Made by a program: the position numbers and the translations under genes. From assembly GCA_043754535.1 (NCBI GenBank), contig JAYUUN010000022.1, positions 1 to 55,549 of the forward strand: a DNA stretch of 55,549 nt, in the 5' to 3' direction. Within the stretch, counting starts at the first letter, position 1. Every line of letters starts with the position of its first letter. The notes beneath the pieces are model-generated. The model saw only the letters and a program-made list of their open reading frames with translations. It did not search any database and was not told the origin of the DNA. This DNA is from Chloroflexota bacterium. GTDB lineage: Bacteria; Chloroflexota; Chloroflexia; QHBQ01. Positions 2,670 to 43,885 of this stretch are shown here, in pieces.

Positions 2670-4301
2670 ATGAGTGTTCTTGTTGCGGATCGCCTTGAGC
2701 GACCATCTTCTGCCTTGAGCCGGAGTGATTGGCGCAATCTCCTGCTGATCGGGGCGGGTTGGTTGCTGTGCGTGCTGCTGATGCCGCCCACCCGCAACTT
2801 CGCCTACGCAGACGACTGGGACTACGCCCGCTTTGTGCAAGGATTGCTTGATGGGCAACCCCCTGCTCTACCCGACTTTACACAGGCGACGTTGCTTTCA
2901 CACGCAGCCTGGGGCTTGTTGTTCAGCAAGCTGTTTGGGTACAGCTTTACTACCCTCACCTGGTCAGTACTTGTTCTTAGCTTGGTCGCGCTAATCGCCT
3001 TCTACCTGCTGCTGCGGCAACTTGGTTTTGCCTCTAATCTTAGTCTGCTGGGAGTGGCTGTCCTAGCTGTCAACCCGCTGTTCTTCAACTACAGCTACAG
3101 CTTCATGACTGACATCACCTTCCTCAGCCTCATGCTGCTTAGTAGCTTGTGCTACATCCGCGCTGTCACCAGCGACGCGCAACTGGCGAGCGGGGCCGAC
3201 CTGAAGCCTGTGGTGATAGGCAATGCGAGCTACAGCTGGCTAGTACTCGGCAGCCTGTTTGCCCGCCTCGCTTTCCTCGTGCGCCAGTTTGGGCTGGCTT
3301 TGCCAGTAGCGATGTTGTGGCTGCTCTGGAGCGGGCGTTTGCGCTGGCAACACCTGCTGGCCGTCGGCTTGCTACCAGCTGTCACTGCTGGTAGCTACCT
3401 GCTTTGGTCGCGTGGCTTTCCTCTCAACTCAGCAGGCGTACACCAGCAGGATATGCTAGGCGAGCTATTTAGCAACCCTGGCACTGCTTTGGGCTTCCGT
3501 ACTATAACCCTGCTCTACTTCCCCCCCATCATCGGTCTAACTATCTTTCTGTTTGGCAGGGTACGCCATTGGTGGCTGGTGCTTTGCTGGTTTGTTGTGC
3601 TGCTTCTGGCAACTTACACCGTGCAGCGGCTTCTACCCCGAGACACCGATGGTCCTCCCCTTGGCCTCGATAGCTATCAATGGTTTTGGTTGCTGGGCAT
3701 CGGACTGGCAGCCTGGTGGCTAGCTAATCTAAGTGAACTAGCTCACCTGATTTTGAGCAAACCCGCTTCAATAAAGCAGCCTCGTCCAGTCCACTTTATT
3801 TACTTGCTCACCTTGATTATGCTACTTGGTACCTTTGTGGTTAGTCGTTACCTTTACGAGCGATACTACCTGCCAATGCTACCGGGCGTGATCGTCGCTG
3901 GCTTGCTGTCCAGCCACTACCTGGTCGGTCGGCGGCTACTTGTTACCTGGCTGTTGGTCGCTCTGGTCGGTCTTTATAGCGTAATAGACCACCTTGATAT
4001 CTATGCGTACGAAGCTACACAGTGGGATGCTGGCCTCAACCTGGTACGCTCAGGAGTACCGATCAACCAAATCTACAGTGGCTTCGCCTGGAATGGCTAC
4101 TTCATGTATGACGAAGGGTTGCGCTCCAAAGCTGGTAAACCGCTATCTGCCTCTGATCCCTACCCGCCCCTCCTGGTAATCGACCGCAAGTACCTGGTTA
4201 CGGATGCTCTGAAGCGTGGCTATCGCCTCAAGCAGAGATATCCCTACCGCAGCCTTCTTAGTTTTGGCGAACGGTACGTTCTTGTCTTGGAGAGGGAGTA
4301 G
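2670..4301 (+). CDS. GT-C fold (ArnT/PMT-like, GT39-type) membrane glycosyltransferase, paralogue 1
   Basis: Polytopic membrane protein; acidic DDW motif in first external loop (NFAYADDWDY); NPLF..YSYSFMTD; RQ motif; YERYYLP. Confidence 0.8.
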   Translation: MSVLVADRLERPSSALSRSDWRNLLLIGAGWLLCVLLMPPTRNFAYADDWDYARFVQGLLDGQPPALPDFTQATLLSHAAWGLLFSKLFGYSFTTLTWSVLVLSLVALIAFYLLLRQLGFASNLSLLGVAVLAVNPLFFNYSYSFMTDITFLSLMLLSSLCYIRAVTSDAQLASGADLKPVVIGNASYSWLVLGSLFARLAFLVRQFGLALPVAMLWLLWSGRLRWQHLLAVGLLPAVTAGSYLLWSRGFPLNSAGVHQQDMLGELFSNPGTALGFRTITLLYFPPIIGLTIFLFGRVRHWWLVLCWFVVLLLATYTVQRLLPRDTDGPPLGLDSYQWFWLLGIGLAAWWLANLSELAHLILSKPASIKQPRPVHFIYLLTLIMLLGTFVVSRYLYERYYLPMLPGVIVAGLLSSHYLVGRRLLVTWLLVALVGLYSVIDHLDIYAYEATQWDAGLNLVRSGVPINQIYSGFAWNGYFMYDEGLRSKAGKPLSASDPYPPLLVIDRKYLVTDALKRGYRLKQRYPYRSLLSFGERYVLVLERE

Positions 4302-4352
4302 CCGCCAATGCCAACCGATAAACCAGTTGCCAGTACTGTTAAGGATAGATAA

Positions 4353-5990
4353 TTGTTCGAACCAGCAAGGCACTCCACACAAGCTACAATTCGCCAGTGG
4401 TTCACTATTGACCGCCGCAATCTCCTGCTGATCGTAGCGGGCTGGTTGCTGTGCGTGCTGCTGATGCCGCCTACGCGCAACTTCGCCTACGTGGACGACT
4501 GGGTTTACTCCCAGGCAGCAGAGCGGATCTGGAGTGGGCAAGGCTTTATTCCCCCAGACTATGTTAGCCCCACCCTGGTTGCTCATGCGTACTGGGGAGC
4601 AGCCTTCGCATGGCTGTTTGGCTTCAACTTCACCACTCTAACCTGGGCAACGCTGGTCTTGAGCTTGATCGCCCTGATCAGCTTCTACCTGTTGCTACGT
4701 TTGTTCGGCTTTAGTCCCTACCTCAGCTTGGTTGGCACGGCTGTGCTAGCAGTAAATCCCCTATTCATCACCTACAGTTATACCTATATGACCGATATCA
4801 CCTTCCTCAGCCTTATGCTGCTTAGTAGCTTGTGCTACACCCGTGCTGTCACTAGCAACGCGCAACTGGTGAGTGGGGACGACCTAAAGCCTGTGGCGAT
4901 AGGCAATGTGAGCTACAGCTGGCTAGTACTCGGCAGCCTGTTTGCCAGCCTGGCCTTCCTGGTACGCCAGTTCGGCTTGGCTTTGCCAGTGGCTATGTTG
5001 TTGTGGCTGCTGTGGAGCAGGCGTTTGCGCTGGCAACAGCTGCTAGCTGCCGGCTTGCTCCCAGCGGTGACAGCTGGTAGCTACCTACTCTGGTCGCGGG
5101 GCTTTCCTCTCAACTCAGCAGGCGTGTACCAGCAGACTGTGCAAGGCGAGTGGCTGAATAACCCCTTGGTAGCCTTGCAGTTCCGCCTTAACACTGTGCT
5201 TTACGGCTTGCCCTTGCTTGGTTTGACCATCCCCCTGTTCGTTAGGGTGCGGCACTGGTGGCTGGCACTACCATGGTTCACCATGATCGCTCTGGCTATC
5301 TATGCGCTGCCCCTGATTATCTCCCAGGAAGGATCGGTGCCAAACACGTTGTCAAGCTACAAGCCACTTTGGTTGCTCGGTGCTGCCCTAGCTGCCTGGC
5401 TGCTGGCAAGTTTGAGCGAACGTACCTACTCCATGCTCGCCCGCCTGCAAACAGATTGGCGGCCACCACCTGTTTACTTCCTCTACATTCTCACCTTGCT
5501 GCTGCTGGTTGGTACCTTCTTCGTCAGTCGCTACTGGTACCCTCGTTACTCCCTCCCTCTGCTACCCGCCTTGATTGTGCTGGCTCTGCTGTTCTGCCGC
5601 TCATACGCAGCCCGTCTGCAAGGCTTGAGCTGGGCGATAATTGTTCTGGTCGCTCTCTATAGCAGTGTCAACCACCTCGAAAGTTACGCTTTCACCCGCC
5701 TTAGCTGGCAGGCTGCTAGCAACCTGGTGAACGAAGGAGTGTCGCTCGACCACCTGGATGGTGGCTATGCGTGGAACGGGTACTATATGTACGACGAGTC
5801 CATGCGCCGTTTGCGCGGTCAACCACTGCACGCACCAGACGCTTATCCCCCCGACCTGGTAATCGATCCACAGTACCGGCTGGCTATCGCTATCCAACCA
5901 GGCTACCGCGTTGTGCAGAGCTACTCTTATTTCAGCCCACTCTCTGGCTTCCGCGACAACACGCTGCTGGTGCTGAGGCGGCAAGAGTAA
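4353..5990 (+). CDS. GT-C fold membrane glycosyltransferase, paralogue 2
   Basis: Tandem paralogue of 2670..4301 (NFAYVDDWVY, YTYMTD, RQFG, YPRYSLP); TTG start with AAGGA upstream. Confidence 0.8.
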   Translation: MFEPARHSTQATIRQWFTIDRRNLLLIVAGWLLCVLLMPPTRNFAYVDDWVYSQAAERIWSGQGFIPPDYVSPTLVAHAYWGAAFAWLFGFNFTTLTWATLVLSLIALISFYLLLRLFGFSPYLSLVGTAVLAVNPLFITYSYTYMTDITFLSLMLLSSLCYTRAVTSNAQLVSGDDLKPVAIGNVSYSWLVLGSLFASLAFLVRQFGLALPVAMLLWLLWSRRLRWQQLLAAGLLPAVTAGSYLLWSRGFPLNSAGVYQQTVQGEWLNNPLVALQFRLNTVLYGLPLLGLTIPLFVRVRHWWLALPWFTMIALAIYALPLIISQEGSVPNTLSSYKPLWLLGAALAAWLLASLSERTYSMLARLQTDWRPPPVYFLYILTLLLLVGTFFVSRYWYPRYSLPLLPALIVLALLFCRSYAARLQGLSWAIIVLVALYSSVNHLESYAFTRLSWQAASNLVNEGVSLDHLDGGYAWNGYYMYDESMRRLRGQPLHAPDAYPPDLVIDPQYRLAIAIQPGYRVVQSYSYFSPLSGFRDNTLLVLRRQE

Positions 5991-13136: not shown

Positions 13137-13205
13137 CCCGCTAAGGACAACCTGGCTGCTGCTAATTGGTTGTTAATCCAAATGGGCTATCCAGCTTTTG
13201 CCAGA

Positions 13206-13216
13206 TGTGCTATAAT
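13206..13216 (+). promoter_or_regulatory. Extended -10 promoter (TGTGcTATAAT), probably giving a leaderless mRNA
   Basis: TATAAT ends 6 nt before ATG 13223; no SD. Confidence 0.65.
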
Positions 13217-13222
13217 CTGCTC

Positions 13223-14176
13223 ATGAGCGACCCAGCCCTTAGTGTAATTATGGTCAGCTACAACACTTGTGCAGTTTTGCGCCAGGCGTTGCGGAGCGTC
13301 TTTGCCAGCAGCACCTCCTTCCCCTTCGCGGTCTGGGTGGTGGACAATGCTTCCCAGGACGGTAGCGCAGAGATGGTGGCAAACGAGTTCCAGCCCCAAC
13401 ACGCCAATCTGCACCTGATCCGCAGCCCGCGCAATGGTGGCTTCTCCTACGGCAACAACCTCGCCCTCAGCGAGTTTAGTGCGGCAGGTCGTGCAACTGG
13501 TCAGCCAGGTGCGGTAGCAAACATCGTCAGCAAGTACGTGCTGCTGCTCAACCCTGATACGATCCTGCCGCCCGATGCGCTAGCCGCAATGGTCGCTTTC
13601 ATGGACGCACACCCCCAGGCTGGTATTGCTGGGCCGAAGATGGTGCGCCCCAACGGGCAGCTAGACCTGGCGTGCAGGCGTGGCTTCCCTACCCCGCTCA
13701 ACTCGATCTACAAGTTGGCTGGCCTCAGCAAGCTCTTTCCCCACTCGCGTCGCTTCGCCAGCTACAACATGACCTTTGCTGACCCTGACACCTTGACCGA
13801 GGTGGACGCGGTGATGGGCGCGTTTATGCTGCTACGGGCTGAAGCGATCAACCAGGTCGGGTTGATGGATGACAGCTTCTTCATGTATGGCGAGGACTTG
13901 GACTGGGCCTACCGCATCAAGCAGCACGGCTGGCAGGTCTACTACAATCCCGCCGTGCGGGTGATCCACTACAAAGGTGAGAGTACGCGGCGTAGTAGCT
14001 ATCGCATGATTATACAGTTCTACCGCAGTATGAGCATCTTCCACCACAAGCATTATGCCGGCACTACCTTCTTCCTGCTCAACTGGCTGATCGCCATCGG
14101 CATCTGGGGCAAGGCTGGCCTGGCACTGGTGCAGAACTTGCTCCGCCCCAGCAGCAGGAAGCGAGTAGCTTTATGA
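13223..14176 (+). CDS. GT2 family glycosyltransferase (WbbL-like)
   Basis: LSVIMVSYNT, VVDNASQDGS, NGGFSYGNN, LLLNPD, GAFMLLR, FFMYGEDLDW. Last codons are GCT TTA TGA (TTA 14171-14173). Confidence 0.92.
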   Translation: MSDPALSVIMVSYNTCAVLRQALRSVFASSTSFPFAVWVVDNASQDGSAEMVANEFQPQHANLHLIRSPRNGGFSYGNNLALSEFSAAGRATGQPGAVANIVSKYVLLLNPDTILPPDALAAMVAFMDAHPQAGIAGPKMVRPNGQLDLACRRGFPTPLNSIYKLAGLSKLFPHSRRFASYNMTFADPDTLTEVDAVMGAFMLLRAEAINQVGLMDDSFFMYGEDLDWAYRIKQHGWQVYYNPAVRVIHYKGESTRRSSYRMIIQFYRSMSIFHHKHYAGTTFFLLNWLIAIGIWGKAGLALVQNLLRPSSRKRVAL

Positions 14177-18883: not shown

Positions 18884-19636
18884 TTGCTGCAAGCAAAACG
18901 CATTCAGGCGATCATCTTCGACCTGGGCGACACCCTGATCCGCACCCCGATCAGCCAGTATGAAGACGACCACTTCTACGCTGAGACTGCCCGGCAGTTG
19001 CGCCTGGCCCGCCCAGATGTGGCCCTTGACGCAGAGCAACTGCGTCACCACCAGGGGTTGGTTGGTCAAATGATCGCCGACTCCTACTACGAGGAGCAAC
19101 CATCAGCCCGCCTGGAGTACGACGCGGCAACCACGATGGCTCTGGCGATGCGCCAGGTCGCCCCACAGTACGCTGATGATGCGGCCTTGCAGCGCACGAT
19201 CTACGATATTGGCCGTGGGTTGATCTACAGCCCGGCGGTGGTCAGCCCCTACACCTATGCGGTGCTGGACGATCTGCGTGGACGCGGCTATCGTCTCGGT
19301 CTCTGCTCCAACTACTTCGGCTACGCTGACGTGGTGCTGGATAGTACGCGCGAGATCGGCATTGCCGGGCGGCTAGACGCTTGCGTGTTCTCTTGCGAAG
19401 TGGGCTGGCGCAAGCCGAACCCCCGCATCTACACTGCGATCTGCGCAAAGCTGGCAGTCGCGCCCACCAACTGCCTGTTCGTCGGCGACCGCCTGCTAGA
19501 GGATATACATAGCCCACAAGAGTTGGGGATGCAAACCGTCCTCAGTCATGAGTACCGCCAGGAGCAGCCAGTGGCTAGCACGCCCCCGCCCGATCTGCTG
19601 ATCGAGCGGCTAGATCAACTGTTGGCTGCTTTGTTA
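18884..19636 (+). CDS. HAD-superfamily hydrolase (standard code would extend to 19753)
   Basis: GGAGG RBS plus TTG; FDLGDTL, CSN, KPNP.IY, FVGDR..EDI. The domain ends ERLDQLLAAL, followed by in-frame TTA at 19634. Confidence 0.85.
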
Positions 19637-24660: not shown

Positions 24661-26046
24661 TAACGCTGACTGGAACTCACCATCGATCTCGTCCTCCACC
24701 TTCTTCTCGTTCACTTTGGTCAGCAGCAAGATGCCAATCAGGTAGTAGATCGCGGCACCGACCATGATCGCGCTGTAGGTGGCGACTGGGTTGAGGTTGG
24801 GGTTGAGGATGCTGGCGATCACCGTGCCGAAAACCGGGGAGAGTGCCTGCGCCCCCGCCGTCGCCAGGTTGCTGACCCCCATGTACTTGCCTGCCTGACT
24901 GCGCGGGATCAGGTCTGTGACCATCGCCCAATCCACTGCGGTGAACATCCCGAAAAAGAGGCCAGTGAAGGTGCTGAGGATGGTTAGTAGGGTGAAGTCA
25001 CGGAAGAAGACCAGGGCGAGCGCGCCAAGAATGCCGAACACCCCACTGAGGGCGATCAGCGGCTTGCGCCCATAGCGGTCGGTGAGGAAGCCGCTGATGA
25101 TCGCTGAGATAAAGCTGAAGCTGATCACGATCACCTGGATGATCGTGTAGCCTGCATTCGCGTCGGGCAAGATCAGGCCAAAGAAGTTGTAGTTCTTCAG
25201 CTTGATTACATCTTGGATGTAGTAGAGGGCGTAGGTGGTGATCGTGGTGAAGCCCATCAGGCTGAACAGGCGGGCGATCAGTAGCCAGACGAAATCGGGA
25301 TACCGTTTGGCGTTGATGCTGACGATAGAGGTTAGCCGCTGGCCGAAGCTGATCCGTGGGCTGGGCGGTAGCTGGTCTGTTGCTTGCTCGCGCAGCAGCA
25401 GGATGTTGACCAGCCCACCGAGGGCAACGATGATGATCACCCCCAGGCTCGCCCCGGCCAGGTCGTTGCGGCTGAGGCTGATACCCATGTAGATAGCAGA
25501 GCCGATCTGCCCGAACATCTGCGCCGCCCCTAGTGCGCCGCTGGCCTTGCCACGATCCTCCGCTAGCACGCGGTCGGGCAGCAGGCCGTGATAGGGGCCA
25601 AAGGCGACGTTGGAGAACAACTGGGTGAGGCCATAGAAGAAAAGAAGCCACCACCAGCCAAGTAGGACAGAGAGGGTCAGTCCTAGCACGCTGATCAGGG
25701 TCAAGGTCGTGCCAATGAAGACGAAGGGAACGCGCTTGCCCACCTTTGACCGCCAGCCGTCGCTGATCGCCCCGAACATGGGCTGGGCGAAGGCGGCGAT
25801 GATCAGTCCAGGGAAGGTGATCCAGCCGAGCGCAGTGAGCTTGTTGTCGGCAACGGTCAGGCCGAACAGCCGTAGCCCTTCGGCGGGCAGCAGCCGCTCG
25901 TTGAGGTTTGGTATGATGAACTGGCCTATGGCACCCCAAAGTACGGTGAAGGCAAACTGGTAGGCGCAGAACCAGAGGTAGTCCAGCCCGCGCATCTTGT
26001 GGGCGGCTGGGTTGACCTTCGCCATTGGTTGGTTAGCAGTGGTCAC
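24661..26046 (-). CDS. MFS transporter (12 TM, sugar-type); standard code would extend to 24592
   Basis: QPMFGAISDGWRSKVGKRVPF, LPD.V..EDRGKASG, GFLTDRYGRK, DWAM..D. Acidic tail ends DGEFQSA, then TTA. Confidence 0.88.
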
Positions 26047-27213: not shown

Positions 27214-27813
27214 TTACACCCCCACGGTCAGCCCTGCCACCGCCGCCCTGCCTCCCTCGGTGATAAACTCGCCGCGTACCCGCTCGGTCAGTACCGCCGC
27301 AAAGTCGTATTCCAGCAGTCGTGCGCTGAGGCTGGCGACCTCGTCCTCCGCCAAGGGGTATTCTACGGTAGTGATCAACTTGCCCTCGTCGCTGGCTAGG
27401 TAGTCACTGGCGAAGATCACGCTGTCTGCGCCGCTATAGTGCAGGTAGTGGCGGTGCTTGCCCGGCTGCTCGATCACGAGCAGGTCGCTAGTCGCGTCGG
27501 CCCGACGCAGCACCTTGCAGCCAAATGCTTCCTGGTAGGCAGCCAGGCCGTGATAGGCTCTCTCAGTCAGGAACAGCAAATCTACCCCACCTAGCGCGTC
27601 CAAAGCCTCAAACAGGTCGTCGCTCAAGTCAGGCAGCCCCACCAGCACCTTGCTGCTAGCAACAACGAAGTAAGCGAGTCGCTGCCAGCCTCCATCCTCA
27701 TCCTCACCCTGACCATGCTGGTAGATGGCGTAGACGTGCGGCGGTATTAGCAGGCTCATGTTCGCTGCCCGCAGCAGGAACTGCGTCTCGCGGGAGTTCT
27801 CCTCGCCCAGCAT
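27214..27813 (-). CDS. Hypothetical protein, degenerate metallo-beta-lactamase-like fold
   Basis: AAGGAG RBS; LGGVDLLFLT, FGCKV, PG.H, VIFASD resemble an MBL fold lacking the HxHxDH motif. Confidence 0.55.
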   Translation of the reverse strand: MLGEENSRETQFLLRAANMSLLIPPHVYAIYQHGQGEDEDGGWQRLAYFVVASSKVLVGLPDLSDDLFEALDALGGVDLLFLTERAYHGLAAYQEAFGCKVLRRADATSDLLVIEQPGKHRHYLHYSGADSVIFASDYLASDEGKLITTVEYPLAEDEVASLSARLLEYDFAAVLTERVRGEFITEGGRAAVAGLTVGV

Positions 27814-29381
27814 AACGCGCTCTCCTTCTCTGCTTCGCTGCCCCGCCGCAGCAGGAAGATGGCTGGCAGGATCGCTACCACTGCCACGATGGCCGCCGCC
27901 CTAAACTCCTCGGTGTAAATCTGGACAAAGGCGGCAACCACCGCCTGCCCGTTCAGGCCCGCGTTCAGGTTGGCGAGACGTACCAGGCCCCAGGCTTGCA
28001 GCAGCGGCAGGGCAAGGGTCATCCCTGTCAGGCGGGCGAAGGTGACGGTGGCGGCGGCGATGCCTGCCCGGTCGCGGGGCATGGAGTTGATCGCGCTAGC
28101 TGAAGTGGGGGCGATCAGCAGGCCAAAGCCCAGGCCGATCAAGCCCAGGTGTAGCCAGGTCGCCACCGGGTCGTAGACGCTGGCCGCACCCCAACCAGAG
28201 AGTAGCCAGAAGCCCGCCGCCACTGCCAGCAAGCCCGCGACCGCCACCACAGGGTAGGTTAGCCGTTCGCTGAACAGGCCACCGAGGATTGCGCCGAGGG
28301 GAATGAAGGCGGTCATGTGCAGCAGCAACAAGCCCCCCTCCACCGCTCCGTCATGCCCAGCCACGCCAGTGAACACCACATTGCCGAGCAGGGCGAGGTT
28401 CAGTTGGGCAACGATCAGGGCCGCTCCGATCAGCAGATTGACCAGGTTTGCGCTGACGAAACCACGAATGGTGAAGTCGCGCAGTGGCAACAGCGGGTCG
28501 TGACCTACCCGCTCGACGACCAGAAAGAGAACGAGGGCCAGGATCGCGCCGCCCGCAAACCAGGGGAACAGTTCGGTGGCGAACAGGCGGATCGGCGGTA
28601 GCTCTGTCTTCTGCGAGAGGGCGAGGGTAAGCAGCAACAGCGTGCCGCCGAGCAGCAGCCCTCCCAACCAGTCTACCTTTGCCTGCGACTTGACGTTGGC
28701 TGGTACCAGGCGTAGGAGCAGGAAGATAGCACCCAGGCTGAGGGGGATATTGAGCAGGAATATCCAGTGCCAGTCCTTGATCGCTAGCCCCAGGCCGCCA
28801 ACCCCGAAGTTTAGCTGGCTACCCCTGAGCAGGTTGACGACCGCCACCCCATAGAAGGGGCCAAGCACGCCGCCCGCCTCGGCTACCGCCCCGATCATCC
28901 CCAGGGCGAAACTGCGCCGTCGGGGAGCAAACAAGTCGCGCACCATTGCCATGCCAATGGGCAGCACCGCCCCGCCGCCAACCGCCTGCACCACGCGGAA
29001 GCCTAGCAGCCAGCCAAGACCAGTGTCCACCCCAAACACGTCGCTGCCAGACAGCGCACAGCCAAGCGAGCCGATGATAAAGAGGATCATAGAGGCGACA
29101 TAGGTGCGGCGGTGGCCGAATATGTCGGCGATGCGCCCTAGCAGCGGCAGGGCCAGGGTGTAACCCAGCAGGTAGGCGGTGACGATCCAGCCCGCCTGAT
29201 CAAGGTTGTTGATCGGGATACCCAGGTCGTTGATCACCTTCGGCAGCACGGTGACGATCACCGTCTGGTCGAGGGCGGCCAGGAAGATGCCGACGCAAAT
29301 CACCGCCAGGGTGAGGATCGGTCGCCGATTTCCGCTGACCGCCTCTACCCCTGCCTCCCGCTCCAAAGCCGCGCTGGACAA
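27813..29381 (-). CDS. MFS drug:H+ antiporter (DHA2/EmrB-like, 14 TM); standard code would extend to 27756
   Basis: FLAALDQTVI, WIVTAYLL, GRIADIFGHRR, RVVQAVGGG, WIFLLNIP. Confidence 0.9.
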
Positions 29382-42484: not shown

Positions 42485-43075
42485 ATGGCAATCCTTGATA
42501 TTGTACAGGACGGCGACCTGGTGCTGGCGAAGAAATGCACGCGGGTGACCACCTTTGATGCAAAGCTGCGTAAGCTGGTGGATGATATGTTTGAGACGAT
42601 GTACTACGCAAACGGCGTGGGCCTGGCCGCCAACCAGATCGGCCTGCCGTTGCGCCTGATCGTGATCGACGTGCCGCCCGATGCAGAGGACAGGCAGCGT
42701 GGCTTCAAGATTGCGATGGCGAACCCAGAGATCGTCAGGCTGGAAGGGGAGGAGACTACCCCCGAAGGCTGCCTCAGCGTCAAGGGCTGGGTGGGCGATG
42801 TGCAGCGGGGCTACAGGGTAGAGGTCAAGGGGTTGGCCCTGATGCCTAATGGTCAGTGGAAGGAGCAGAAGGTCAAGGCCCATGGCTTTCTCGCCCGCGC
42901 GTTCCAGCACGAGTGCGATCACCTCAATGGGGTTCTCTACACCAGCCGTGTAACCGACATTACCACGCTGCACAAAATAGAGCGCAGCGAAGAAGAAGTT
43001 GAGCAACTACGCCAACAACTCAGCGAACTACGCGAGAGCGCAAATGCGGGTGCGGCAAAGGACACAGGTGCGTTA
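42485..43075 (+). CDS. def: Peptide deformylase (ends at TTA; fused to the next gene under the standard code)
   Basis: GVGLAANQIG, EGCLS, QHECDHLNG. Confidence 0.93.
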
Positions 43076-43885
43076 ATGGCAAGTCTACGTGTGATGAGTT
43101 TTAACATCCGGGGGGCGAACTACCCTGACGGCGTGAACGCCTGGCCTGCCCGTGCTGCCCTCAATGTCGCTACTATCCAGCAGTATGGCCCTGACCTGAT
43201 CGGTTTGCAAGAGGTGCAGGCCGACAACCTGACCTACTATCGCCAGCACCTACCAGCCTACCAGTTCGCCCCTGGCCCACAGTACAACAACACCGAACCC
43301 TACGACTATGTGGCCCTCGCCTGGCGACCAGAGCGGCTGCAACTGCTGCACGCGGGCGGCTTTTGGCTCAGTCCCCAGCCCGCGCACTACTCCGGGCCAG
43401 CCTGGGGGGCAGTGCAGGTGCGCTCGGCAAACTGGGCGCGCTTTGAACTGGTGCAGGGCGGTCAGCAGTTCGTCCACCTCAACACTCACCTCGACTACAT
43501 CAGCGAGCAGGCCCAGGTGGAGGGAACGAAGCTGATCCTCAGCCAACTGGCGGGGGTGCGCGGCGGCCTACCCGCCCTCGTCACTGGCGACTTCAACTGC
43601 AACCCCGACAGCGAACCGCACGCTCTATTCCTTGCTGCTGGCTACCAGGACAGCTACATCACGCTTGGCAATCGTGACGACTTGGCTGACCCCACCAGCT
43701 ATACAACCCATTACTTTCTCGGCGACGGCTACCGCCCGCAGGACTTCCATGGCTCTGGGCGTATAGACTGGCTGCTAACCAGGGGCGCACTCACGCCCAC
43801 CAGCTACGCCGTGGCCCGTGATGCCCAGCCGCCAGCCTACCCCAGCGACCACTATCCTGTGCTGGTAGAGTTCAGTCTCGGCTGA
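43076..43885 (+). CDS. Endonuclease/exonuclease/phosphatase (EEP) family protein
   Basis: ATG directly after TTA; LRVMSFNIR, DLIGLQEV, NTHLD, TGDFN, RIDW, SDHYPV. Confidence 0.9.
   Translation: MASLRVMSFNIRGANYPDGVNAWPARAALNVATIQQYGPDLIGLQEVQADNLTYYRQHLPAYQFAPGPQYNNTEPYDYVALAWRPERLQLLHAGGFWLSPQPAHYSGPAWGAVQVRSANWARFELVQGGQQFVHLNTHLDYISEQAQVEGTKLILSQLAGVRGGLPALVTGDFNCNPDSEPHALFLAAGYQDSYITLGNRDDLADPTSYTTHYFLGDGYRPQDFHGSGRIDWLLTRGALTPTSYAVARDAQPPAYPSDHYPVLVEFSLG

Follow-up and report, generated by a model that had tools for sequence, protein, structure and literature searches.

The 55,549-nucleotide contig JAYUUN010000022.1 (C22; hereafter the window) belongs to the genome of an uncultured Chloroflexia bacterium, GCA_043754535.1 (G000), and carries two tandem glycosyltransferase genes (2670..4301 and 4353..5990) that contain no TTA codon. 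The first of these is an ordinary case of a genome-wide pattern, and we propose that UUA has very probably been reassigned from leucine to stop in the family of this bacterium (f1). Judged from the sequences, it is nearly certain that proteins of this family end at TTA, and there is a strong case that UUA is truly decoded as a stop, with release factor 2 (RF2) as its likely reader. This reading follows from the exclusion of TTA from gene interiors, its place at the ends of homologous genes, its interchange with TAA, TAG and TGA, and the noncoding sequence or new gene found after it. With somewhat less confidence, we favor a wider interpretation, in which a free-living family uses a four-stop code (UAA, UAG, UGA and UUA). 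No other cellular genome would have made such a sense-to-stop change before. It would have come about through a novel RF2 route (D143/L201 together with F207Y/H214Q), and the family would present two stages, a genus with a decaying tRNA-Leu(UAA) (g2) and a genus with none (g1).

G000 is a metagenome-assembled genome (MAG) of 3.87 Mb, with 61.4% GC and 88.9% completeness. It forms genus g1 together with G001, G002–G004 form genus g2, these five genomes make up f1, and f2 and f3 are its sister families. The relatives were sampled to 629 kb (G001), 534 kb (G002), 117 kb (G004) and 20 kb (G003). All counts are based on published genomes, and the unpublished G007, G012, G015 and G034 were excluded throughout. 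Genes were called by scoring amino-acid pairs, a procedure that is therefore blind to synonymous codons and yielded 3,292 genes in G000.

Exclusion of TTA from gene interiors

Across these genes, only 446 of 126,500 Leu codons are TTA, and gene interiors hold 48 in-frame TTA, compared with about 2,500 expected from the frequency of TTG multiplied by the CTA/CTG ratio. The deficit is specific to the reading frame: the two other frames of the same interiors contain 5,146 and 2,992 TTA. It also extends to low-GC genes, whose normal use of TTA would have refuted the view of the initial annotation; they have one interior TTA among 388 Leu codons below 50% GC and three among 1,078 at 50–55% GC. The 2,468 confident genes hold 295 TTA, of which 192 belong to the final 50 codons and 58 to the first 50, which leaves 45 in between; the mid-gene share is thus 15%, whereas 76% of all codons are located mid-gene.

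Alignments with homologs give a similar picture. The aligned interiors of G000 contain three TTA among 30,007 Leu codons, beside two TAA, eight TAG and no TGA. In conserved interiors, UUA is therefore no more frequent than the canonical nonsense codons, as in a Leu-to-stop change of the type described by NCBI translation table 23. TTG, by contrast, remains a leucine codon, with 3,735 occurrences in these aligned interiors and 16,983 genome-wide. The relatives show the same near-complete exclusion (3/16,604 Leu codons in G001, 0/7,273 in G002 and 0/1,792 in G003 and G004), and by this comparison the pattern is present in all five genomes of f1. In the sister families, we counted 22 TTA among 2,009 Leu codons, 17 of them opposite leucine; by the same alignments, these families read TTA as leucine.

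The two glycosyltransferase genes fit into this genome-wide pattern without standing out from it. The gene at 2670..4301 (forward strand), which encodes a GT-C type (PMT_2) membrane glycosyltransferase of 543 aa and ends in TAG, has exactly the 16 in-frame CTA codons that had been listed for it and no TTA among 112 Leu codons. Its tandem paralog at 4353..5990 (forward strand), a GT-C type membrane glycosyltransferase of 545 aa ending in TAA, likewise has no TTA among 104 Leu codons, 11 of which are CTA. Out of frame, TTA occurs 12 and 5 times in the first gene and 9 and 8 times in the second. At the TTA rate of the sister families, a single such gene would lack TTA with a probability of about 0.3, so that the two genes alone are weak evidence. 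Their supposedly CTA-rich usage did not hold up, since CTA accounts for 14.3% and 10.6% of their Leu codons and for 10.2% in the genome (P = 0.11 and 0.50). Neither is CTA unusually common across the window (1,337 observed, 1,260–1,301 expected), and CTAG, for which the same had been said, is under-represented (302 observed, 388–495 expected).

The initial annotation had understood the absence of TTA as the footprint of purifying selection that converts it to CTA or TTG. An avoidance of in-frame TTA beyond GC pressure is indeed evident, but a preference among synonymous leucine codons does not account for it. The idea of selection stands, but a conversion specifically to CTA or TTG is not borne out: in 24 columns where sister families have TTA opposite leucine, G000 has CTG ten times, CTC seven times, TTG four times and CTA three times. 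Furthermore, the CTA excess in G001, G002 and G004 (8.5–10.5% versus 4.4%) is larger than the amount of TTA lost (1.3%). In the aligned interiors of f1, in which CTA is doubled, ATA is also lowered, to 3–8% of Ile codons compared with 14% in the sister families; both ATA and CTA are still sense codons in f1.

TTA at the ends of genes

Where TTA does occur in frame, the coding signal collapses. The coding score per codon drops from +0.14 before the first TTA to −0.27 after it, as it does across canonical stops (+0.18 to −0.31), whereas it stays at +0.11 to +0.18 past the control codons CTA, ATA and AGA. The median run to the next canonical stop is 18 codons after TTA and 21 after a canonical stop, with the same length distribution. 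When TTA is treated as an additional stop, the gene scores add up to 214,197 instead of 212,891, while each of 12 control codons lowers the total. Under this scheme, 252 of 2,973 genes (8.5%) end in TTA, and the essential genes argS, def, fmt, rnc and nuoF are found with this ending. At 17 of 227 TTA ends, the codon overlaps a start codon as TTATG, a frequency similar to those of TAATG and TGATG, and the base following TTA resembles most closely the one following TGA, the stop read only by RF2 (chi-squared 24, compared with 64 for TAA and 154 for TAG).

Protein families end where the TTA would place them. In arginyl-tRNA synthetase (ArgS; C105:9746-11809), the match to TIGR00456 is complete at residue 687 (569/569 positions) and TTA is codon 688. 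The terminal Met is followed by TAA, TAG or TGA in 19 of 21 loci and by TTA in the other two, G000 and G001; three unpublished genomes were excluded from this set, and one genome had no match. The protein has 687 aa in G000, and the open frame of its relatives comprises 740–930 codons; both exceed the 569-position model and have insertions. More generally, we compared 64 open reading frames (ORFs) with a near-terminal TTA, from 83 in the fetched regions, with NCBIfam: 41 were matched, and 39 of these matches end before the TTA, with two reaching it or exceeding it by one residue.

A further 31 ORFs with an inner TTA were searched against Pfam, considering only the best stretches of each. Unrelated domains lie on both sides of the TTA in 14 of them and a domain lies on one side in eight; one has a weak match crossing the codon and eight have no match. 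The pairs separated in this way include Def and an exo/endonuclease/phosphatase (EEP), a thiamine-binding protein and AccC, a kinase and RNase PH, HD and ScpA, and AsnC and LysE. Of 37 cases of mid-ORF TTA, 25 have an ATG no more than 20 codons downstream, compared with 28% for CTA. In the 4,722-base ORF C1:32852-37573 (1,573 aa), for example, TTA is codon 784, a GGAGG and an ATG follow seven codons later, and a GH35 domain starts at residue 801. This apparent GT-C/GH35 protein is likely two genes rather than a fusion, and thus an artifact of translation with table 11. A 2,811-base ORF on the same contig (C1:45467-48277) has no in-frame TTA. In the region of C81:29237-31270, the open frame behind a TTA encodes a B3/4 domain followed by tyrosyl-tRNA synthetase with no TTA between them, and this arrangement is possibly a real fusion.

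Orthologous gene ends show how TTA exchanges with the other stops. Among 29 TTA ends of G000, G001 has TTA at 23, a canonical stop at four and a sense codon at two; for 13 such ends compared with G002, the counts are one TTA, six canonical stops and six sense codons. Conversely, G002 has TTA at eight of 96 canonical ends of G000. Sense codons in G002 face the TTA ends about as often as they face the canonical ones (6/13 and 38/96). The tails behind TTA are noncoding, and indels that shift the frame distinguish those of G000 from those of G001, for example behind argS.

Several TTA ends lie in the window itself. On the forward strand, peptide deformylase (def, 42485..43075, 196 aa) ends in TTA at 43073-43075, and the ATG of the EEP gene (43076..43885) follows immediately; table 11 falsely joins the two. 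The letters of this junction are identical in contigs of four runs from four studies, one of which is possibly the source DNA. Assembly error was rejected as a source of the TTA ends, given that the TTA is common to G001 and the contigs of other runs. The GT2 gene 13166-14173 (forward strand) ends in a TTA at 14171..14173, whose last A is also the A of the next ATG (TTATG). Because an in-frame TGA follows, the two readings cannot be told apart from this site by itself; the G004 ortholog has TAG in its place. A HAD hydrolase gene on the same strand ends in TTA at 19634..19636, with its Pfam matches stopping seven codons upstream. On the reverse strand, TTA ends are found in two MFS genes: that of the transporter 24661-26025, at 24661..24663, precedes the table-11 stop by 23 codons, and that of 27813-29366, at 27813..27815, overlaps the ATG of ORF 27214-27813 as TTATG.

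Decoding of UUA and rival explanations

If UUA is a stop, a release factor should read it, and RF2 is the candidate with family-specific changes. We compared the family proteins with 113 other RF2s, which were the next-best matches of a single search, using E. coli numbering by alignment. Position 143 is D in 113/113 of the other proteins and E or A in 6/6 of the family; position 201 is L in 113/113 and M in 7/7. The family proteins also carry F207Y and H214Q. The codon-reading motifs of RF1 look ordinary, and prfB retains its CTT-TGA-C frameshift site in G001–G004. D143 presumably plays a role at the second base of the codon. The SPF motif (205–207) of RF2 touches the stop codon according to the available sections of PMC6742477, and those of PMC3974865 describe an RF1 histidine, taken here as the counterpart of H214, that stacks on the second codon base. 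F207Y and H214Q were rejected as a sufficient cause, because both occur elsewhere without a code change. As side observations, the α5 tip of RF2 reads AREGG instead of AGAGG throughout the order (f1–f3), including genomes that read TTA as leucine, and in the GC-rich family f43 (GC >70%), TTA is too scarce in the samples to judge the code.

On the tRNA side, no tRNA-Leu(UAA) was found with ARAGORN, blastn and Rfam in G000, which is 88.9% complete, nor in the likewise incomplete MAG of G001. An initial pattern search gave only chance matches, and relaxed ARAGORN settings with introns gave many unusable candidates. An ARAGORN ‘tRNA-Pyl(CUA)’ at C31:4032 is absent from the 44 Rfam tRNA matches and was taken as spurious. 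In G002–G004, a tRNA-Leu(UAA) gene is present, but its anticodon stem has G27-U43 and a C31-A39 mismatch, whereas the stem, as inspected by eye, has five Watson-Crick pairs in all 25 outgroup genomes with a match (25 of 32 published ones). The Arg tRNAs found have the anticodons GCG and UCG (C79:510-585 and C111:49310-49383), and no ACG was found in G000, whose CGN box is apparently read without inosine.

We propose a stepwise history: TTA would first have become rare, RF2 would then have gained the ability to read UUA, and stops would now drift among four codons. Protein release by the ribosome at UUA would most probably depend on RF2 with its D143E/A, L201M, F207Y and H214Q changes, and the competing tRNA-Leu(UAA) would be lost in g1, where it was not found, and impaired in g2 by its mismatched anticodon stem.

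Several observations weigh against this interpretation. H214Q is not exclusive to the family: among 400 other Chloroflexota genomes, 50, from several families, have RRQTSF or RRQTTF in place of the RRHTSF motif, and 10 of 15 sampled H214Q genomes (8–40 kb each) use TTA mid-gene, with the other five being GC-rich (66–74%) and uninformative. One genome, G203, carries both F207Y and H214Q and has TTA mid-gene 13 times. S205 and S216 are intact in 7/7 family RF2s, which therefore do not have the Ala/Gly/Cys change of ‘Ser204’ reported for organelles. The base after TTA is still distinct from that after TGA (P = 3e-5). G000 also lacks tRNAs for Ala-UGC, Thr-GGU and Pro-CGG, and G001 has no match for Leu-UAG, so that in both MAGs the missing tRNA-Leu(UAA) is weak evidence on its own; moreover, the gene is kept in 3/3 genomes of g2, with 93–94% identity among them. 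Finally, a few TTA stand at conserved Leu codons of frames that are otherwise open. C62:37638 has one (codon 220) at a conserved Leu of an FG-GAP repeat, with a 71% identical paralog, and C103:85234 (codon 57) and C40:24747 (codon 17) have TTA where G001 has TTG. The end TTA of C9:6192 corresponds to CTA in G001, and a TPR gene at C79:8293 (47% GC) has five in-frame TTA. Such exceptions are no commoner than canonical nonsense codons, so that recent nonsense changes probably explain them, with a low level of read-through as a less probable alternative. The TPR gene, in a stretch of 47–48% GC at a contig end (C79:8293-10912), may have been acquired recently and then disrupted by the code of its host, or may be mis-binned DNA.

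Proteins might also end at TTA without a dedicated reader, if UUA were unassigned and cleared by pausing, slow near-cognate release through RF1 or RF2, or rescue, with the RF2 changes being incidental. We consider this unlikely, while acknowledging that the lack of a detected tRNA-Leu(UAA) in G000 is in line with it. A canonical stop also follows within three codons of TTA in 34/227 cases (15%), compared with 8–12% for other stops, which hints at a back-up, and TTA, the least used of the stops, becomes slightly scarcer in genes with high GC at third codon positions (5.8% in the top tenth). Unassigned codons have a precedent in CGG of Mycoplasma capricolum, as mentioned in the available sections of PMC8629427. 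Yet essential genes end in TTA, and TTA is retained at most of the orthologous ends in G001 (23/29). Proteins ending at an unassigned codon would be destroyed by tagging through transfer-messenger RNA, and neither ArfA nor a third RF-1 family protein (ArfB) was found in the 88.9% complete G000. Furthermore, g2 genomes end genes in TTA despite having the tRNA gene, and the code and otherwise invariant residues of RF2 change together.

Even less probable, in our view, is an ambiguous UUA that is mostly a stop but is read through as leucine in a regulated or leaky manner, by the weak tRNA-Leu(UAA) in g2 or by near-cognate tRNAs, so that some fusions or tails would partly be made. The conservation of that tRNA in G002–G004 and the handful of TTA that occupy conserved leucine sites could be seen in this light, but these three genomes have no TTA among 9,065 aligned interior Leu codons, the tails are noncoding and frame-shifted between G000 and G001, and the tRNA was not found in G000.

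That TTA is a rare but ordinary leucine codon, be it bldA-like or purged, as the initial annotation implied, and accumulates at gene ends through relaxed selection, AT-richness or antisense TAA is very hard to maintain. The rare codons AGA and AAA are likewise enriched near gene ends, but coding signal persists past AGA, ATA and CTA and not past TTA, and orthologs end in a canonical stop where the TTA stands. Antisense TAA overlap, also rejected as a source of the TTA ends in its own right, explains only eight of 177 TTA, and leucine decoding would merge unrelated genes such as def with EEP and the thiamine-binding protein with AccC. Hardly credible is a +1 slip at a hungry TTA into an overlapping TAG or TAA (TTAG, TTAA). 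In its favor, the next base is G in 123/227 cases; against it, that base is A in only 8%, and the 85 ends with C or T next show the same collapse of the coding score (+0.12 to −0.36).

Relation to known codes and further features of the genome

The code proposed for f1 matches NCBI table 23, known from mitochondria of Thraustochytrium and other Labyrinthulea, whose sole difference from table 11 is TTA as a stop. There too, an RF2-type factor is implicated according to the available sections of PMC12574857, which tie UUA reading to RF2 Ser204. In contrast to these mitochondria, however, G000 is a 3.9-Mb bacterial genome of 61% GC with about 3,300 genes and uses TTG starts, and the ‘Ser204’ change is absent from f1, where the candidate residues S205 and S216 are intact and other residues are altered. 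On the sequence evidence, the f1 code would work like the organellar one by a different molecular route.

The same sections of PMC12574857 describe peDinoflagellate plastids that resemble f1 in having UUA confined to the ends of genes, spurious fusions when the standard code is applied and an altered RF2, and that have no cognate tRNA; their UUA and UCA stops are called the first sense-to-stop change outside mitochondria. These organelles have about 64 genes and edit their RNA, and TCA, the counterpart of their second new stop, is a sense codon in G000. Leu-to-stop changes at UUA are also described, in the available sections of PMC12574857 and PMC6821328, for mitochondria of Marsupiomonadales and of Pycnococcus/Pseudoscourfieldia, but there UUG is a stop as well and mtRF1a is altered, whereas in G000 TTG is sense and the codon-reading motifs of RF1 look ordinary. 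Known bacterial variants (UGA as Trp or Gly; Arg codons) resemble the f1 case as lineage-wide code changes with matching tRNA changes, but those listed in the available part of PMC8629427 turn either a stop into a sense codon or one sense codon into another. The screen of that paper relied on Codetta, which cannot detect sense-to-stop changes, as stated in the available text of PMC9825746. In the literature searched, which left most subscription journals outside its coverage, we found sense-to-stop reassignments only in organelles and none in bacteria.

A superficially similar case is Streptomyces, another GC-rich bacterium in which TTA is very rare and is read as leucine inside genes by the bldA tRNA-Leu(UAA). 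G000 shares the rarity, but its TTA is shut out of interiors and marks gene ends; TTA read as leucine in conserved genes was seen at no more than four doubtful sites.

If true, the reassignment would mean that even a complete cell with thousands of genes can enlarge its release-factor code, and it names testable RF2 residues for the reading of a pyrimidine at the second base. The code would form a natural barrier, since genes that arrive in the standard code and the proteins of phages would be cut short, and could serve as a natural model for recoded organisms resistant to gene flow. For annotation, it would imply that table 11 assigns wrong C-termini to about 250 proteins per genome, and that at least 14 apparent fusions in G000 are two genes each.

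Lastly, six CRISPR arrays, which differ in part in their type of repeat, are present in G000 (C27, C31, C43, C50, C62 and C112); three of about 80 spacers were searched and matched no viral contig. Many palindromic or near-palindromic hexamers (among them CGGCCG, GGGCCC, GRCGYC, GGCGCC, AGCGCT and CTCGAG) are nearly absent from the genome, with observed/expected ratios of 0.00–0.02, pointing to heavy restriction-site avoidance.

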